A stretch of DNA of 64,000 bases, from the IMG/VR virus record IMGVR_UViG_3300017650_000009; one strand, given 5' to 3'. The position numbers and the translations under genes were made by a program. This DNA is from a virus (taxonomy: Duplodnaviria > Heunggongvirae > Uroviricota > Caudoviricetes). The stretch's first letter is position 1; every line of letters begins with the position of its first letter. The notes beneath the pieces were generated by a model that was given only the letters and a program-made list of their open reading frames with translations, did no database searches and was not told where the DNA came from. Below are positions 2,893-31,031 of this stretch, in pieces.

Positions 2893-3276
2893 ATGATTTT
2901 ATATGATTCAGATTATGAATATCTTCGAGCTCCTGAACCGGGTAGCCAAACGTATCGCGTATCCGTCATTCAACTAGCTCCACTCAAAGATAGTCCAAGC
3001 CAAGCACATTCAATACAGGAATATCATGAGGAAATAATCTCATGGGTTAAATCCGAGACATCCGTTTGTGTTACTAATATTTTGAGGAATCAATCATTTT
3101 CGGGCGCTGTTAGTGGTCCTGTTGGATACACTTATGGACCAAGTTATGTTATGATGTTTGAGAATCACCAGACTGCGGTTCTGTTCAAATTAATGTTTGG
3201 TGGAAGATTTCTAACTCATGCAACCATTCATTTACGGCAAACATATTATCTTGACAAATATTTGGGCACTCACTAA
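2893..3276 (+). CDS. FKL-motif family protein
   Basis: MMFENHQTAVLFKLMF; start uncertain. Confidence 0.65.
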   Translation: MILYDSDYEYLRAPEPGSQTYRVSVIQLAPLKDSPSQAHSIQEYHEEIISWVKSETSVCVTNILRNQSFSGAVSGPVGYTYGPSYVMMFENHQTAVLFKLMFGGRFLTHATIHLRQTYYLDKYLGTH

Positions 3277-3285
3277 AACGCATTT

Positions 3286-3395
3286 AGCTCTTCTGGAGTA
3301 TGCGAACTTTCCTCAGGGATTGGCTCCTTTAGGGTCCGTAGGCTAGACTTACGGTGGCGGTAGGGTGAAGGGGAAGAGTCAGACTCTTCCCCTTA
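3286..3395 (+). ncRNA. candidate small RNA or attenuator leader
   Basis: TTGACA(3251)-17-TAAAAC(3274) promoter, GC-rich non-coding tract with CCGTAGG/CTTACGG hairpin, ends in GGGGAAGAGT/ACTCTTCCCC hairpin. Confidence 0.4.
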
Positions 3396-3421
3396 TGTAA
3401 GATATGAGGACTGGTGAAAGT

Positions 3422-3727
3422 ATGATAGCCAATTATGTCTTTCTGTTCAAGCAGTTCAAATGGGATGATCCCGAACGATCAGAATGGTTACGGATACTTT
3501 CATCTAAAACTCATGATCTGACGTATTGGTATGATTTGGCCTATAAGTATTTCACAATGGATCTTCATACGTCATTATCTTTAGAGATAGCTGCAATTTG
3601 TATCAATGATGCAAATATTGCGACGGTCCTAAGATTGCGGTTTCCCGATCGTATTTTATGTTCTTGGAACAAAAATGAAAATGAGAATCAAATAGTAGAA
3701 TATGATTATTCGCATTTAATTAGTTGA
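3422..3727 (+). CDS. divergent FKL-motif family protein
   Basis: CINDANIATVLRLRF. Confidence 0.6.
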   Translation: MIANYVFLFKQFKWDDPERSEWLRILSSKTHDLTYWYDLAYKYFTMDLHTSLSLEIAAICINDANIATVLRLRFPDRILCSWNKNENENQIVEYDYSHLIS

Positions 3728-3775
3728 CACTAAATATGTTCGGTACTATATTGGACAAATAGCAGAAATGCATAT

Positions 3776-3848
3776 GGCGGCAGTGACGTAGATGGATGCG
3801 TGCGGGCCTGTGAAGCTCAGAAGGTGGGATCGTTACCCATTTGTCGCC
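3776..3848 (+). tRNA. tRNA-His(GTG) with G-1 and C73
   Basis: G-1 then GCGGCAG/TTGTCGC acceptor, C73, anticodon loop CTGTGAA, T arm GTGGG-ATCGTTA-CCCAT; no encoded CCA; TTGACA promoter at 3724. Confidence 0.85.
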
Positions 3849-3922
3849 CTCAGAAACCAACAAATAAGTAATTGTTTGGTCCCTCCCGGTTCAGGCCGGG
3901 ATTTTTATTCAAGAGAATCCTG

Positions 3923-4189
3923 ATGAGTAAGCTAAAAGGCATTCACGGTAAATTTTTCGATATTGAAACGGAAGTATACCAATTTGATAATCCAATGGAT
4001 TTGGATTTTGTAAAGGATGCCCTTTACGTTAGTCTCACAAACTTGCAGACGGGATCAAAGTTTAACGCTTTTATCTCAAGAGACTGGGTTAAGGACCCCA
4101 ATGCTCTCAACTACAAGCCAATGCGTGAGGCCTTAAAGCCCACAAAACAAAGTGAGGGTCGATTATATGCCGGCACAAGTAGCAAATGA
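3923..4189 (+). CDS. hypothetical protein
   Basis: ORF; start at ATG3923. Confidence 0.65.
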   Translation: MSKLKGIHGKFFDIETEVYQFDNPMDLDFVKDALYVSLTNLQTGSKFNAFISRDWVKDPNALNYKPMREALKPTKQSEGRLYAGTSSK

Positions 4190-4367
4190 AACCGCTGCTC
4201 TAGAGCTTGCAAAAATGATTCGAGCTTATGAGGATTCTAATCCCGATGTAGGCTTCGGCGTTACTTGGGGAATATGTTTAGACCAAGCACTTGTAAGCCT
4301 TGGTCTAGTAAAGACTGACTTAGATTATGATGTTGTCCTTGGAGAACTGAATAGCTTACGTTGGTAA
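4167..4367 (+). CDS. hypothetical protein
   Basis: GAGGG RBS before ATG4167. Confidence 0.6.
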   Translation: MPAQVANETAALELAKMIRAYEDSNPDVGFGVTWGICLDQALVSLGLVKTDLDYDVVLGELNSLRW

Positions 4368-4396
4368 TAGAGCAACCGCAAACAAAGGAGGCAATT

Positions 4397-5015
4397 ATGC
4401 TACGCGGAACTCGTGTACTTACTGGTGCAGACGCAATCGCTTATACTAGTGCAATTAATACGCTCCGAGGTTGTCTTCATCGAAGCTGATTACGAAGAGG
4501 TAATCCTTCCTGCACTTTGGGAACAGCAGACATTCGTCGATAAAGCTGGGCCAGAAATCATCAATCAAATGTGGGCATTTAGGGATAAAGGCGACCGTGA
4601 GGTTTGTTTGATTCCCGAGGTAACCGGCCTTGTTCAGGAGTTGTGGCGTGACGATTGGTCCAAAAAGGCTAAGTCTCGTCGTATATTCTACGTAAGCCGT
4701 TGTTATCGCTATGAGCGCCCCCAAGCAGGACGATATAGAGAGTTTACTCAATTCGGTGTTGAACTTCTCGGAGAAGCCGAAAATGGCTGGCAGGAAGTAG
4801 TAGATCTTCTTGAGTTGTGTTTGAGTAAATTTCCAGGACTTGACTATAAGCGTTCGGACAGTGTAAAACGTGGTCTCACATATTACACAGAAGAAGGCTT
4901 CGAAGTTGAATGTCCATGCTTGGGTGCACAGAAACAAATAGCTGGTGGCGGAAGATACTCCGAAGGAATTGGTTGGGCGATTGGCGTAGATCGTCTCATA
5001 CTAGCCCGAAATTAA
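4397..5015 (+). CDS. hisS: minimal histidyl-tRNA synthetase (catalytic domain only); needs a +1 frameshift at ~4475-4480
   Basis: AAGGAGG RBS plus MLRGTR start in one frame (stop 4487-4489); +1 frame has YEEVILP, motif 2 YRYERPQAGRYREFTQFGVE, RGLTYYT, GGGRY and motif 3 GIGWAIGVDRL; no anticodon-binding domain. Confidence 0.85.
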
Positions 5016-5446
5016 CCCAAGCATTTATCACATATGAGGAGGAGAAGCGTGATGAACTTCTCCTCCAGACTCTTGAGTTCAACGGTTGGCACGTCTATAT
5101 TATGGTCCCATATAATAGCATTCCAACGTGTCGGGAAGTTTTTGACTCCAAGCAAAGTTTAGTATCAACGTTTGGTTTTGTTCCCACATTTGATGATTTT
5201 ATTTCCATGACCAGACATAAAATTGAACTTTCAAATAGTTTGCATCGATATAGGTTTCCCGATCAGTTTTATTACTTTGGTATCAAAAACTCAGATGGTG
5301 AGATTCTTGATATGACATGGGATAACTTTTTGATCGGGATTAAACTGGCCGACTATTGGGATGACCCCGAGGTAAAACCTTGGATTGATTTCGGTAGAGC
5401 TCGTGGTCAAAATTTCAGTATTGGGCACAATGAGGTATTTGGTTGA
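4910..5446 (+). CDS. hypothetical protein (start uncertain)
   Basis: ORF overlaps hisS 3' end; no clear start near 5015. Confidence 0.45.
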   Translation: MSMLGCTETNSWWRKILRRNWLGDWRRSSHTSPKLTQAFITYEEEKRDELLLQTLEFNGWHVYIMVPYNSIPTCREVFDSKQSLVSTFGFVPTFDDFISMTRHKIELSNSLHRYRFPDQFYYFGIKNSDGEILDMTWDNFLIGIKLADYWDDPEVKPWIDFGRARGQNFSIGHNEVFG

Positions 5447-5493
5447 CACTCTTCCTGTTTATGCTAGAACAGTATGAACAAGGGAGATCGAAA

Positions 5494-5799
5494 ATGGATT
5501 ACACAATTGAAGTAGATGCTGTTTTTGCAGCGGATGAACGCTTCCCCAATGAAAGCGATTTGATTGCTCGTTTGGTTCTTTTCGGCTCCGATGGTTCCGG
5601 ACATAAACAAGTCGAAGATGTTATCGAATTTGATGTTCGGTACGCTGGGCGTTTTGTGACGAGTTTCATTTGCTTGTGTGAGCATTCACACGGTATTGTT
5701 ACACTTGACACCAAGGGTTATGATACTGGTCGTGCACGATCCGACCATTCAAAGATCATTAAAATCATCAACCAAAAGGTTGCAGAAAGGACCAAATAA
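5494..5799 (+). CDS. hypothetical protein
   Basis: GGGAGATCGA RBS, TTGACA promoter at 5443. Confidence 0.75.
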   Translation: MDYTIEVDAVFAADERFPNESDLIARLVLFGSDGSGHKQVEDVIEFDVRYAGRFVTSFICLCEHSHGIVTLDTKGYDTGRARSDHSKIIKIINQKVAERTK

Positions 5800-19100: not shown

Positions 19101-19193
19101 CATCCGTTTCCGTTATCTAACCGAAATAAAATAAATAAATCAAGCGGTTAATGGTTCTCCGTTAGCCGTTTTTTCTATTTGTGGAGTGAGCTA

Positions 19194-20327
19194 ATGGTTA
19201 CACAACGTATCTTGGACTATCTTGCCACCTACGCCGAGGATGGCCCCGTTTTGGTTGTTGATCTTGAACTGGTCGAGCAGAACATGCTGGAGTTTAAGAA
19301 ATCGCTCCCAAGTAGTAAAATATTTTATGCTGTTAAAGCTAACCCAACGCCAGAGGTTCTAAGCTTACTTGCGAGTATGGGTTCCAATTTTGATTGCGCA
19401 AGTGTTCCAGAAATTCGTATGGCTCTTACTGCGGGAGCCAATCCGGATCAGATTTCCTATGGTAATACCATAAAGAAGCAAAAGGATATCAAGACGGCAT
19501 ATGATTTGGGTGTACGCTTGTTTGCTGTTGATTCAGTTGAAGAAGTTTACAAGTTATCAGTTGCTGCACCTGGTTCTAATATATTCTGCAGAATTCTCAC
19601 AGACGGTGAAGGTGCCGAATGGCCATTGTCTCGTAAATTCGGATGCACGGGCTCAATGGCACTTACCGTCATTCGCGAAGCAAAACGTATGGGCTTGAAT
19701 CCAATTGGATTATCCTTTCATGTTGGTTCACAGATGACACGCTTGGGTGCGTGGGACCAAGCTGTTGGTGAATGCAAGGAACTATTTGATATCCTCGCAC
19801 ACGAAGAAATCAATTTGACTCTCTTGAATCTCGGTGGTGGTTTCCCAACTCGCTACACTAGAGAAATCCCCAATACCGAAGAATATGGTCTTGCTATTCA
19901 AGCCGCACTTGTGAAGTATTTTGGAAATAATATTCCAGAAACTATCATTGAGCCAGGTCGTGGTATGGTTGGTAATGCCGGTGTTATACAATCGGAAGTT
20001 GTTTTGGTTTCACAAAAGGATGCCGACGAGGAATATCGTTGGGTGTATTTGGATATTGGAAAATTCAGCGGATTAGCAGAAACCGCTGATGAATCAATAC
20101 GTTATCCTATTCGTACTGAACGCGATCACGACGAGTTGGGCCCATGTGTACTAGCTGGCCCGACTTGTGATTCAGCCGATGTGATGTATGAGAAACAAAA
20201 ATACATGCTTCCGCTTTCACTTTGTGTGGGTGATAAGATTCTTATCGAATCAACAGGTGTTTACACAAGCACATATTCGGCCGTAGCATTTAATGGGTTT
20301 GCTCCATTGCGAACTATAGTCATTTGA
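19194..20327 (+). CDS. odc: ornithine/lysine decarboxylase (PLP fold III)
   Basis: YAVKAN (PLP Lys), KFG, FHVGSQ, LGGGF, EPGR, GPTCDSAD. Confidence 0.92.
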   Translation: MVTQRILDYLATYAEDGPVLVVDLELVEQNMLEFKKSLPSSKIFYAVKANPTPEVLSLLASMGSNFDCASVPEIRMALTAGANPDQISYGNTIKKQKDIKTAYDLGVRLFAVDSVEEVYKLSVAAPGSNIFCRILTDGEGAEWPLSRKFGCTGSMALTVIREAKRMGLNPIGLSFHVGSQMTRLGAWDQAVGECKELFDILAHEEINLTLLNLGGGFPTRYTREIPNTEEYGLAIQAALVKYFGNNIPETIIEPGRGMVGNAGVIQSEVVLVSQKDADEEYRWVYLDIGKFSGLAETADESIRYPIRTERDHDELGPCVLAGPTCDSADVMYEKQKYMLPLSLCVGDKILIESTGVYTSTYSAVAFNGFAPLRTIVI

Positions 20328-22749: not shown

Positions 22750-23361
22750 ATGCAAATTACTTCCAGTCTGGTCCCTATGGTCGTTGAACAGACCAACCGC
22801 GGCGAACGTTCATATGATATTTTCTCTCGCTTGCTGAAGGAACGCATTGTGTTCTTGAACTCGCAGGTCGAAGACGGCATGGCCAATCTTATCGTCGCCC
22901 AGCTGCTTTTCCTCGAAGCCGAAGATGCTGGCAAGCCAATCAACCTCTACATCAACAGCCCAGGCGGCGTTGTTACTGCTGGTATGTCCATCTACGATAC
23001 TATGCAGTATATCACTTCTCCGGTTCATACGCTGGTTCTCGGTCAGGCTTGCTCGATGGGTTCGTTCTTGGCCAACGCCGGTGAGCCTGGCCATCGCTAC
23101 ATGCTTCCAAGTGCACGTCACATGATTCATCAGCCATCGGGCGGTTCGCGTGGCCAGGCAACTGACATGGAAATCCAGCTCAGAGAAATCATGAAGATGA
23201 AGGAATACCTGACGAAGTGCTATGTCAAGCACAACTCGAAGGGCAAGACTTACGAGCAGATGCTGGCCGATATGGAACGCGACTACTTCATGAGCGCGGA
23301 AGAATCTCTCGAATATGGTCTTGTCGATAAGATTGTGACCAGCGCAAACGAAGCTAAGTAA
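22750..23361 (+). CDS. clpP: ATP-dependent Clp protease proteolytic subunit
   Basis: [29 protein letters not shown] (Ser), MIHQP (His), [10 protein letters not shown] (Asp). Confidence 0.97.
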
Positions 23362-24035: not shown

Positions 24036-24970
24036 ATGATGCAGCGCAAACGTGTTGCACAAGAGTTAAATAACTCCCACAGCAATGTAGGCTAAGTTGG
24101 ACACTAGTCCAAAGTTATAGAGTTTGGCCGCTTAGGGCCATTAATGGGATAAGGCAAGTGATTGCCCCAAAGCTAGGTTTCCCATAAACTAGCGTCAGAA
24201 ATGATCCTACTAAGCAAGCACGAATCTCCGGCGAACGGTGTGTCCCCTTAGGGGTGGCACTAAGCGGGAAGGTAAGGTGTAGAGTTCCCCGAAAGGGAAT
24301 AATGTCAGAGCCATTCGGTGAGACAAAAAGGCCGCAAGCCAGCTCGCACATGCAAACTTACTGACCGCCGATGATTAACGTGTAGGGAAATAAGTCCAAT
24401 ACTTAGCGGTAAAGGGCGGTTCCCAATACAAGAGGAATGGTCTGCAATGGTCATTGCTCGAAGGATGTCTAAGTAACTCGCAAGGTGAAAGGAAATATTG
24501 GCGTGGTGCATTCGGTTTGATGAAAGTCAAATTGAACATCAGGAACAGCACGTCAAGGTGGGTTTGCGATAGCATAGTGGTTATGCAACGGCCTTCTAAG
24601 CCGTCGAACGTAGGTTCAAATCCTACTCGACAAAAACAAAACGCAAAGACTGTTCCGGTAATGTGTGAAAGATGCTTAATGCTCCAGGAGCAATCCAATG
24701 GAGTCACGTGGAAGCCTGCAAGCCGAAACGTGTTTATAGAGGAAGGTTCATAACAGTTTAGCGACTGTGAGCGGCATGCGAGTGTCGGTGGGCTAGAAAC
24801 TGTAGAATAGCACATTATGTCGCGTCTAACGCCTGACGCTAAAAACGGCAGCATTGGTGAATACATGTTGAGGGTTTACTCCAGCATGTGGAAAAAGACA
24901 GAACTGTCCGGGTAGCACTGGAACAGATAATGGTCGAAGGTCACTACAAGAAGCTGTATTCTCAGGCTTT
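24036..24970 (+). ncRNA. large structured ncRNA, GOLLD-like
   Basis: ~930 nt with no credible ORF, many short hairpins with GNRA-type loops, embedded tRNA, TTGCAT(24001)-17-TATAAC promoter, terminator 24973-24996. Confidence 0.6.
24563..24634 (+). tRNA. tRNA-Arg(TCT)-like domain embedded in the large ncRNA
   Basis: GCAT/ATGC D stem, ACGGC-CTTCTAA-GCCGT, GTAGG-TTCAAAT-CCTAC; bulged acceptor, no CCA. Confidence 0.7.
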
Positions 24971-28570: not shown

Positions 28571-29073
28571 CTAAACCGCATAACTCAATCTGTTACATTG
28601 AGACACCAGGGCATCCAAACCTCATAATAGATGGTCATGGAAAGAGCTTTGGCTTCCCACAAGAATATGGAAGAATCAATAAACCAAATAAGGATTATTG
28701 GAAAGCATACAAGTATGTTTGGCAGTTTTATAAAAATGTAGCTGATGAAATTGGTTTTGATTTGCCATTTACTTGGGTCGTGGCTACACCTTTGAATGAA
28801 CATTATAGGAAAAGACGGTTCAACAAAGGCGTATATAAGATGGAACCTCAGGGTCCCACTTGTGCGGTACAAAGCTATTATGATTTGAAACTAGCTATTT
28901 CAAATCATAGCAATCATTTTTCGATACTTTCGAAAGAGGATTGGGATAAACGTGCTCGTATGTTCTTTATGGTTAATAAACCAGCCAAATCATTAAATTT
29001 GCCACATGGCATATATGATAGCTATTTGATTTTATGTGAGAGTTGGTTGCTAAAACAAGAAACTCGTAGTTGA
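28564..29073 (+). CDS. hypothetical protein
   Basis: ORF. Confidence 0.6.
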   Translation: MVTKPHNSICYIETPGHPNLIIDGHGKSFGFPQEYGRINKPNKDYWKAYKYVWQFYKNVADEIGFDLPFTWVVATPLNEHYRKRRFNKGVYKMEPQGPTCAVQSYYDLKLAISNHSNHFSILSKEDWDKRARMFFMVNKPAKSLNLPHGIYDSYLILCESWLLKQETRS

Positions 29074-29117
29074 CAATAATCCTTTCCATGCTATGTGAGT
29101 GTGGAAAGGAGTTTTTT

Positions 29118-29807
29118 ATGCTCGATATCAAAATTATTCAGTCGATTCTGTTTGGTCTTGTTCTTACCACAGTTTCGTATTTCGTTGGCCTCCAGGCCGG
29201 CTGGATTGAGAACCTCAATCATCTGGAAGCGCTTGCAGTATTTGCCAATTACATGAGTGCATACTTATGTGTGGTACAAGCTCGTTCCAATTATCCCATC
29301 GGCATTTTCGCAACGTTCCTATATAGCTGGTTCTATTGGACAGGCGAACCTGAGCCGGCAAAAGCACTGGCCATTTTCAACTTATATTTGGTATTCTCCC
29401 TGACATATGGCTATTTCCGTTGGGGACCAGATGGCAAGCCTCTCACGGTTTCACGCGTCAAGCCCGTTTGGTGGCTCGGTTATGTGGCAATTGGTTCGGT
29501 TGTCGGCGCATTGCTTTGGGTTGCCACACTATATGGGGCACAAATTACGCCACTCGAAGCTACGATCTTTGTTATCATGGGTGTTGCTCAGTTCCTCCTG
29601 GATAACAAGAAACTTGAAACTTGGGCTGTCTGGGCTGTAGTTAATGTGTTGAGCATTTACTTCTTCTGGACGCAGGGCTGGTACCTTGTTATGTTCCAGT
29701 ATTTGTTCTTGCTTTGCAATACGATTTGGGGCTGGTCCGAATGGGCTCGCTCGCACAAGGAAACAACAAATGCGCAAACGTTATCGAATAGCGGCATACG
29801 CTATTAG
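29118..29807 (+). CDS. pnuC: nicotinamide riboside transporter PnuC
   Basis: Multi-TM; NYPIG, YGYFRW, AQFLL..KKLETW..W..VNV, WGW.EW. Confidence 0.85.
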   Translation: MLDIKIIQSILFGLVLTTVSYFVGLQAGWIENLNHLEALAVFANYMSAYLCVVQARSNYPIGIFATFLYSWFYWTGEPEPAKALAIFNLYLVFSLTYGYFRWGPDGKPLTVSRVKPVWWLGYVAIGSVVGALLWVATLYGAQITPLEATIFVIMGVAQFLLDNKKLETWAVWAVVNVLSIYFFWTQGWYLVMFQYLFLLCNTIWGWSEWARSHKETTNAQTLSNSGIRY

Positions 29808-29994
29808 ACAAGATGGGGAGATCACATGGAAAATCCAATGGACCCGGTTGGGATTCTTTTGGAAAGATGTGATCGCCCCCGGTTATACAACTACTACTTG
29901 GACTATGCACAATCTTGCATTTGCCCAAAAGTGTGTTAAGAATCTTGAAGAAGCCGAAAATGTTCGGCACGGAAAGAAAAAGGAAAAGAAATGA
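29770..29994 (+). CDS. hypothetical protein
   Basis: AAGGA RBS; ATGA-coupled to nadR. Confidence 0.55.
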   Translation: MRKRYRIAAYAIRQDGEITWKIQWTRLGFFWKDVIAPGYTTTTWTMHNLAFAQKCVKNLEEAENVRHGKKKEKK

Positions 29995-31031
29995 TCGGCT
30001 TTCTTAACATGACTGCATTGGTGCCCACAATCGGGCACCAATATTTGGTTTCCTTCGCTGCTAGTTTTATGCAGTTGAAAAAAGGAACCCTATATGTGGT
30101 CATTAGTGGAAGGTCGTTCGAACCAATTGCGGCGAGCGATCGTCGCAATTCCTTTATCCGTCAATTCAAAGCCTATGATAACGTCATCATTACGAGTGTC
30201 GATGATGACGCTGCACCACAACAGGATGATGGTACCCAGGAGTTTTGGGATTATTGGGTTAAGATTGCAACTGATGCGACCGGTGGTGAACCAGTTGATT
30301 ATTTGTTTGCAAGTGAGACTTATGGTCAACCCTACGCGGATCAGCTAGGCGCACAGTTCATTCCTTGCGATATAAAGCGAGAAACATTCGATGTTCGTGG
30401 GACTGATGTTCGATCAAATTTGATTGAGAATTTCGATCATATCATGCCAGAGTTTCGCCAGCACATTGCGAGACGAATCACAGTTTTTGGTTCTGATTCA
30501 ACTGGCAAAACAACGATGACACTCAAATTAAAACAAGCTTTTGAACCATATTCCACATCCTTAGTGGAATGGGCTAGACCTTATTTGGAAACTGTTGGTA
30601 CCGAAGTCACTATTGGACGTATGCTGAATATCATTGCCGGACAATTTGCAATGCAGCAGGCATCAAGTGCGACAAAACTGTCACCGTTGGTATTTCAGGA
30701 TACTGATATGCTGACAACAATTGGCTATCATCGCATTTATGGTATGGATATCCCTGATGAACTAATTGAGGGGTTCAAACGTACCAAAGCCGATTTATAT
30801 CTGGTGATGAATAGTGGTATTCCATTTGAGAAAGATCCACTTCGTTATGGTAATGGAGCTCGTGAATCAACTGATCAGTTTTGGATCGATTTGCTTGAAG
30901 AATTTGATTGTGAGTATAAATGTGTTACAGAGGTAGTTCAACATGAGCAAATTGCTCAAGCCGTTGATCATGTAACAAAGTTCGTTAAGCGAGCTCATGC
31001 TCCGATCGAACAATTTGATAGGAATGCGTAA
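29991..31031 (+). CDS. nadR: NadR-like NMN adenylyltransferase / ribosylnicotinamide kinase
   Basis: PTIGH, FASETYG, VRGTDVR, P-loop GSDSTGKTT, EWAR, DTD, DPLRYG. Confidence 0.85.
   Translation: MIGFLNMTALVPTIGHQYLVSFAASFMQLKKGTLYVVISGRSFEPIAASDRRNSFIRQFKAYDNVIITSVDDDAAPQQDDGTQEFWDYWVKIATDATGGEPVDYLFASETYGQPYADQLGAQFIPCDIKRETFDVRGTDVRSNLIENFDHIMPEFRQHIARRITVFGSDSTGKTTMTLKLKQAFEPYSTSLVEWARPYLETVGTEVTIGRMLNIIAGQFAMQQASSATKLSPLVFQDTDMLTTIGYHRIYGMDIPDELIEGFKRTKADLYLVMNSGIPFEKDPLRYGNGARESTDQFWIDLLEEFDCEYKCVTEVVQHEQIAQAVDHVTKFVKRAHAPIEQFDRNA

Follow-up and report, generated by a model that had tools for sequence, protein, structure and literature searches.

The window, a 64,000-nucleotide stretch of viral DNA, carries a tRNA-His(GUG) gene and, starting 549 bases 3′ of it, a gene for a short protein resembling histidyl-tRNA synthetase (HisRS; Table 1), a spacing that agrees with the roughly 550 bp given in the original prediction. 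The genomic G-1 and C73 claimed there for the tRNA are likewise present, at 3776 and 3848; G1 pairs with C72, the anticodon GUG occupies 3810–3812 and the cloverleaf folds from 3777 to 3848. G-1, the G1–C72 pair and C73 are the features of the G-1-type tRNA-His group in PMC3064791. Scored with the Rfam tRNA model (RF00005), the gene reaches 28.2 bits (E 0.0013; cut-off 29 bits), and it has a C27–A43 mismatch, the T-loop AUCGUUA and no encoded CCA. These atypical features are why default scans miss it: neither default ARAGORN nor a search at the Rfam gathering threshold gave a call, and the gene was picked up by relaxed ARAGORN. It scores below the cut-off and may be decaying. The promoter-like site ahead of it matches 11 of 12 consensus bases and ranks first among the 10 sites found in 3200–5600.

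The HisRS-like gene had been described as encoding a 205-aa protein, but no single open reading frame of that length is present: the gene is split between two frames, which the original prediction does not mention. The frame from the RBS-preceded ATG at 4397 (protein start MLRGTR) comprises 30 codons and ends at the TGA at 4487–4489, and 205 aa are obtained only as the frameshift product of 27 leader and 178 body codons. The body holds the motif-1 proline, motif 2, the histidine-1 and histidine-2 motifs and motif 3, with no His codon and no anticodon domain. Around the predicted shift site the window reads CGA GGT TGT CTT CAT C, and one family locus (L001) reads CTT AGG GGG TCT CTT CAT TGA. 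The window's internal Shine–Dalgarno (SD) sequence, GAGGU, is common to 3 of 78 shifted loci and, compared with the consensus GGAGG, lies one base farther from the site. Minimum-free-energy folding was no better than that of shuffled sequences (z −0.25), and scanning the window with the consensus cassette as a pattern gave one match, which is at chance level.

Table 1. Features of the tRNA-His and HisRS-like genes in the window.
Feature	Position	Strand	Basis
Sigma-70-type promoter-like site, TTGACA-17 nt-TATATT, ahead of tRNA-His	3724..3752	+	consensus match only
tRNA-His(GUG) gene	3776..3848	+	Rfam RF00005, relaxed ARAGORN, sequence
Terminator-like hairpin and U-run 3′ of tRNA-His	3884..3911	+	consensus match only
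Initiation Shine–Dalgarno AAAGGAGG	4384..4391	+	sequence
Leader of 27 codons in the zero frame, holding the motif-1 helix and the RGTR motif (equivalent to Thermus Arg7)	4397..4477	+	ORF reading, alignment, model of in-frame homologue P0102
Internal Shine–Dalgarno-like GAGGT, 3 nt ahead of shift codon	4467..4471	+	sequence
Predicted +1 shift site, with CUU in the P site and the His codon CAU in the A site	4475..4480	+	family conservation
Zero-frame stop TGA, two codons past His codon	4487..4489	+	ORF reading
+1-frame body, 178 codons, to TAA 5013-5015	4479..5015	+	ORF reading, homology, model

The mini-HisRS family

Related loci were collected as best matches to the window's protein: 3 and 45 came from viral contigs, the best 80 of 578 from metagenomes and the best 80 of 340 from genomes, to which three records of phages were added. 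The resulting 212 sequences, the window included, comprise 131 of the short family, 71 full-length HisRS genes and 10 that were skipped for missing upstream sequence or a short match. Distinct loci number 116 of the 131, and since they are related (89 clusters at 85% identity, 53 of them carrying the main cassette), counts of loci are not counts of independent events. Among the 116, 78 are shifted at the window's site, 5 have the cassette upstream, 32 (locus L035 among them) are in frame and one, a Telmatospirillum copy that lacks the family's N-terminal part (L132), is assigned to none of these classes. In the full-length HisRS genes, the N-terminal motif is in frame in all 57 of the 71 where it was detected.

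Most database entries of the family carry wrong N-termini: an RGTR-type start is present in only 14 of the best 120 among 2,659 protein matches, and the rest of these 120 mostly have unrelated N-termini that end at one point. PHROGs has no family for this protein.

The predicted product resembles a HisRS catalytic core

Structure prediction, proposed with the original prediction as a check, gave a HisRS-like model of the body (pLDDT 88) whose top Foldseek matches were all HisRS (TM 0.75–0.86). The class II fold and motifs 1, 2 and 3 are present, motif 1 being whole only after the shift; in a model of an in-frame homologue (P0102, pLDDT 93) the motif-1 helix spans residues 10–29. The active site is intact. 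With Thermus numbering read off the alignment, the equivalents of E81, T83, R112, Q117, R120, R122, Q126, E130, R259, Y263 and Y264 are kept in 83 of 83 cassette genes, and those of the G-1-binding arginines, whose roles are taken from PMC4357726, are almost as constant: R7 is Arg or Lys in 78 of 78, R115 is Arg in 77 and Lys in 4 of 83, and R122 is kept in all 83. The A76 and C74 contacts, E114 and R120, are kept as well. Loss of Arg7 costs the Thermus enzyme about 80% of its activity (PMC4357726), and because the leader holds the Arg7 equivalent and most of the motif-1 helix, it is needed. The equivalent of Thermus E64, termed essential in PMC4357726, is Gln in 78 of the 83 cassette genes, which weighs against the proposed enzyme.

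The two truncations that had been claimed for the protein hold across the family. The chain ends a median of 8 residues past the motif-3 arginine with no match to the anticodon-binding domain PF03129, and the insertion region, counted from the equivalent of Thermus E130 to that of R259, has a median of 35 residues as against 128. The loss of two parts, the anticodon domain and the insertion domain by which the acceptor stem is clamped, is a further point against the proposed reading. A HisRS split into two genes was considered and rejected: in five of five related phage genomes the only over-cut-off matches for a separate anticodon domain were ThrRS. Among 55 longer matches a single one exceeded 45% identity, and it too is without an anticodon domain. 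One family member, P0121, is fused to PF01483 in a protein of 385 aa. A search of BFVD also brought up other phage proteins of 185–222 aa that consist of a bare class II synthetase core at 10–18% identity, K7QJG2 from phage phAPEC8 being one; these are possibly further mini-synthetase families.

HisZ has lost the HisRS catalytic residues, is about 320–400 aa long and is the partner of short HisG. The present protein scores 130 bits with the hisS model TIGR00442 (cut-off 286.75) and 69 bits with the HisZ model (cut-off 271.65), and it keeps the catalytic residues that HisZ has lost; apart from the short gene, the bacterial genomes that have it hold further matches that by their length would suit HisZ. 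With core residues and fold kept and both family models failed, the protein appears to work like a HisRS core without belonging to the full family. Charging that ignores the anticodon is plausible, since canonical HisRS can charge mini- and microhelices by way of G-1:C73 (PMC4357726), and we consider it likely that the mini-HisRS charges tRNA.

The strongest competing explanation accepts a His-sensing shift and has the product activate histidine for some other acceptor, such as a carrier protein, the side chain of a protein or a small molecule, or serve a HisZ-like regulatory role. Catalytic-domain-only class II paralogues do exist, EpmA, the amino acid:carrier protein ligases and HisZ being examples; the bacterial hosts already own a full-length hisS (five of five), and the loss of the anticodon and insertion domains would fit such a role. 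We nevertheless regard it as unlikely, since the G-1 phosphate binders and the A76/C74 contacts are kept, tRNA-His genes adjoin 31 of 115 loci, no conserved carrier or hisG gene lies beside the bacterial copies looked at, and the hisS score is well above that for hisZ.

A conserved cassette at the frame change

An SD sequence, three nucleotides, CUU or GUU and then CAU or CAC form a cassette found in 83 of the 116 distinct loci, 78 of them at the window's place and five lying 9–10 codons upstream. At the 78 shifted loci the combinations are CUU-CAU (52), GUU-CAU (13), GUU-CAC (9) and CUU-CAC (4), so that the P-site codon is CUU in 56, the window included, and GUU in 22, and the A-site codon is CAU in 65 and CAC in 13 and never UGA. 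Over all 83 cassettes the A-site codon is one of the two His codons. The motif was absent from this place in 31 of 31 in-frame genes. Among the 78 shifted loci, 74 can form an SD duplex at least as stable as −3.5 kcal/mol; the in-frame genes do so in 3 of 31 cases and background 9-mers in 19.7%.

The reading frames around the cassette behave as expected of a gene that is translated in two parts. In 78 of 78 loci no stop interrupts the zero frame between RGTR and the His codon, and in 77 one follows within five codons; the body frame is stopped upstream of the site in 57. Third-position variation tracks the zero frame 5′ of the site and the +1 frame 3′ of it, with codon-position entropies of 1.14/0.90/1.79 in the leader's frame and 0.81/0.57/1.59 in the body's frame. 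The overlapping UUC is never UUU at the site, as against 396 UUC and 187 UUU among the Phe codons of the bodies; this invariance indicates that the zero-frame codon is fixed as His and not Tyr. On trees of the family the main cassette needs 6–7 changes, and an AU test rejected a single clade of all cassette genes (p 0.001, 58 selected rows); neither result tells gains from losses or speaks for an independent origin of the upstream cassette.

Taken together, these features make +1 shifting at CUU-CAU very probable. Points against it are the displaced SD variant of the window and the 22 of 78 loci with GUU, where the decoding tRNA would have to re-pair with UUC through a first-position mismatch; CUU_U is by far the best RF2 shift site (PMC5009743). 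Transcriptional slippage was rejected because the site has no homopolymer run.

Links to histidine-tRNA supply

The bodies avoid histidine. His residues number 4 of 14,095 in the shifted bodies, compared with 24 of 5,769 in the in-frame genes and 264 of 27,872 in full-length HisRS, and the bodies of the five genes with the upstream cassette have none. For the window alone, zero His over 180 residues corresponds to P of about 0.05.

Many of the genes are further tied to histidine by what lies next to them, either a His-rich leader ORF or a tRNA-His gene. Such leaders lie upstream of 26 of the 69 cassette loci with room for one; in control stretches they number 3 of 56 and 2 of 67. The bacterial chromosomal copies carry leaders of the His-leader attenuator type, and in the Pseudomonas/Burkholderiales clade a leader, a GC hairpin and a U-run were present in 20 of 20 loci checked. 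In a GC-rich and probably chromosomal clade (L062–L100) the leaders are very short, with three or four His codons at their end; a pattern search found no U-run terminator there. One in-frame viral copy (L034) has a His-rich leader ORF upstream in place of the frameshift. The family does not depend on His sensing throughout, because 32 of the 116 loci are in frame and a His leader precedes only 1 of the 28 of these that have room for one.

A tRNA-His gene within the fetched locus and a His leader never occur together. The tRNA, read by eye, is of the G-1:C73 type in 28 of the 31 tRNA-bearing loci; one locus (L101) has three such genes, and several others (L023, L035, L076, L090, L093 and L096) carry a G-1:A73 tRNA-His. 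Relaxed ARAGORN was noisy on GC-rich bacterial loci; counts of any tRNA were for this reason set aside, and inspection by eye removed three long His calls, in L002, L123 and L041 (one of those in L041).

Proposed mechanism and alternatives

We propose, with a probability of about 0.7, that the window encodes a catalytic-core-only HisRS in two frames, that its ribosomes slip +1 when His-tRNA-His is scarce and that the enzyme recharges the G-1:C73 tRNA-His through its acceptor stem. By analogy with prfB, the 16S tail would pair with the internal SD as peptidyl-tRNA-Leu(GAG) sits on CUU. With prompt filling of the His codon, translation would terminate two codons on; if the codon is left waiting, the tRNA would re-pair with UUC and the body would be made. 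A His-free body could be completed under a shortage of His-tRNA, and the enzyme would then restore His-tRNA, closing a negative feedback loop as in RF2. Comparison across the family gives us good confidence that the frameshift senses His-tRNA, somewhat less than we place in the shift itself.

The shift might instead be a constitutive throttle on a low-fidelity enzyme, with the His codon merely slow and no sensor at work. An abundant stripped synthetase could mischarge, and the in-frame relatives are mostly without a visible His sensor, both of which would suit a throttle. It is hard to see on this account why the A-site codon alternates between the two His codons only, why the bodies avoid His or why His-leader attenuators stand ahead of the bacterial copies, and we consider it improbable.

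Still less probable is that no shift takes place and the internal SD starts the body at an AUC or AUU 7 bases downstream, or at a later ATG, with the leader made as a separate peptide. The 7-nt spacing from the SD to AUC would be suitable, AUC or AUU stands there in 63 of 78 loci, and gene callers pick internal ATGs. At 13 of the 78, however, the position holds ACU or ACG; the invariant CUU/GUU and UUC are left unexplained; and the conserved leader, with its motif-1 helix and Arg7, aligns residue for residue and in register with the in-frame homologues. A sequencing error or a pseudogene, for which one extra base would suffice and with which the atypical tRNA-His might agree, can be practically dismissed, given that an identical extra base at an identical motif recurs in 78 loci at 51–82% identity, isolate genomes included, that independent contigs lack an indel and that the active site is invariant.

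These contigs came from a comparison of four runs at the site, in which a clean bridge was found in X3 and X7, from two other studies, and not in the other two; both contigs cross the shift site without an indel. The X7 contig differs from the window by 41 letters over 3884–5500, and the run, labelled RNA, is probably DNA.

Host and orthogonality

The closest cultured relative of the window is Sinorhizobium phage Phosso, at 80% for the mini-HisRS and 65% for the ornithine/lysine decarboxylase (ODC), which lies at 19179–20327 in the window; the cassette of Phosso is identical. Polyamines affect +1 shifting. The nearest cultured relative fits the rhizobial host that had been deduced from the ODC, which for the window itself is a candidate host. 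In Phosso, a tRNA-His of the G-1:C73 type adjoins the gene, and the main cluster contains a host-type tRNA-His (no G-1, G1–U72, A73). Both kinds occur in five more viral or metagenome loci, and one locus has the host type alone. Two further tRNAs of Phosso have the anticodon CUA (L213:7231–7306 and L218:984–1059) and are possible amber suppressors. In four related jumbo phages (L233–L236) ThrRS is about 400–440 aa long and without the N-terminal editing region, and that of Phosso is full length.

In Rhizobiales, tRNA-His has no G-1, a G1–U72 pair and A73, and the HisRS of Caulobacter charges E. coli tRNA-His 250-fold worse (PMC3064791); HisRS and tRNA-His taken from E. coli work as an orthogonal pair in Caulobacter (PMC3875453). 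In a rhizobial host the G-1:C73 tRNA of the phage might accordingly be a poor substrate for the host enzyme, and the pair could provide a back-up supply of charged His, for instance when HisRS or tRNA-His of the host comes under attack or is in short supply. The orthogonal pair put forward in the original prediction is therefore plausible for rhizobial phages, Phosso having both types of tRNA-His; it does not extend to the Pseudomonas and Paraburkholderia copies. Five of five bacterial genomes with the short gene, among them Pseudomonas, Paraburkholderia and a Burkholderiales MAG, have a full-length hisS, and no tRNA-His gene adjoins these proteobacterial copies, so orthogonality is not the family-wide reason for the gene. 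For the window's phage itself, the sequences leave the chances of orthogonality about even. What the family would have in common, we infer, is a reserve capacity for His charging that a shortage of His-tRNA brings into play; starvation, a host defence or an inhibitor might cause such a shortage.

Elsewhere in the window, a GOLLD RNA (24498–24968, 176.6 bits) has an embedded tRNA-Arg(UCU) at 24563–24634. Two very large minus-strand ORFs of 3232 and 3778 aa (40897–61998), with many repeated motifs, are probably structural. ORFs at 22750–23361 and 29070–31031 resemble, by eye, ClpP and a PnuC/NadR-like pair.

Comparison with known systems

RF2 genes have an internal SD 3 nt before CUU_U, with UGA as codon 26 in E. 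coli (PMC5009743). The mini-HisRS gene resembles prfB in its short zero-frame ORF (with the shift at codon 27), in the SD 3 nt before CUU, in needing a +1 shift for a functional product and in the feedback predicted from that product. It differs in that the A-site codon is a His sense codon and not UGA, so that the signal would be the level of an aminoacyl-tRNA, in that the P-site codon is CUU or GUU with re-pairing to UUC rather than UUU, and in its occurrence, which is in phages and, as an accessory gene, in bacteria. With hungry-codon frameshifting and the Ty1 site CUU_AGG_C it shares a +1 slip by a CUU-decoding tRNA before a slowly decoded sense codon; here, unlike there, the slip would be SD-stimulated and bacterial, at a codon cognate to the encoded enzyme. 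According to the 2016 review PMC5009743, no starvation-type shift is known that yields a starvation-specific functional protein.

His-leader attenuators of the hisL type, which precede hisS paralogues in Bacillus (PMC2965389), likewise sense His-tRNA for an accessory HisRS, and attenuators stand ahead of the bacterial copies here. The window's gene, by contrast, has no leader peptide, and the sensing would take place inside the coding sequence.

As an enzyme, the protein has the motifs 1–3, histidine-1 and -2 motifs, G-1-binding arginines and fold of the bacterial G-1-type HisRS (TIGR00442; PDB 1ADJ, 4RDX and 1HTT), in about 205 aa rather than 420, with no anticodon-binding domain, an insertion reduced from 128 to about 35 residues and a frameshifted gene. 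Its reduction to a catalytic core recalls the HisRS and GlyRS urzymes, which activate their amino acid and acylate tRNA (PMC11602164); those are designed, or come from a broken record, whereas this is a widespread family under selection that has its own regulation, is larger and keeps motif 3. The engineered G-1:C73 pair, which works in vivo, likewise joins a G-1:C73 tRNA and its own enzyme in a host whose tRNA is without G-1. The present pair is natural, phage-borne and without an anticodon domain; its orthogonality is predicted, and does not apply to the Pseudomonas and Paraburkholderia copies.

In Table 2 of PMC3711429 a ‘tRNA synthetase’ cluster appears, without a name, under phase variation; the string ‘histid’ does not occur in that paper's text. 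Our search of full-text literature, with most subscription journals outside its scope, found no account of the mini-HisRS family or of a prfB-type cassette with a His codon.

We think it somewhat better than an even chance that there is a minimal, anticodon-blind HisRS family in jumbo phages and some bacteria that is governed by an RF2-style +1 frameshift responding, at one His codon, to how much tRNA-His is charged, and that in rhizobial phages it provides a self-starting, orthogonal His supply for when that of the host fails. If true, this would be a natural and selected case of hungry-codon frameshifting used as an amino-acid sensor, of which none was known according to the 2016 review, and the second bacterial-type autoregulatory +1 shift besides that of RF2, contained in an 18-base cassette. 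A natural 205-aa synthetase minus the anticodon and insertion domains would make the idea of an operational RNA code testable with an evolved enzyme, and an anticodon-blind orthogonal pair would be usable for code expansion. For the biology of these phages, the finding points to a conflict with the host that is directed at His-tRNA.
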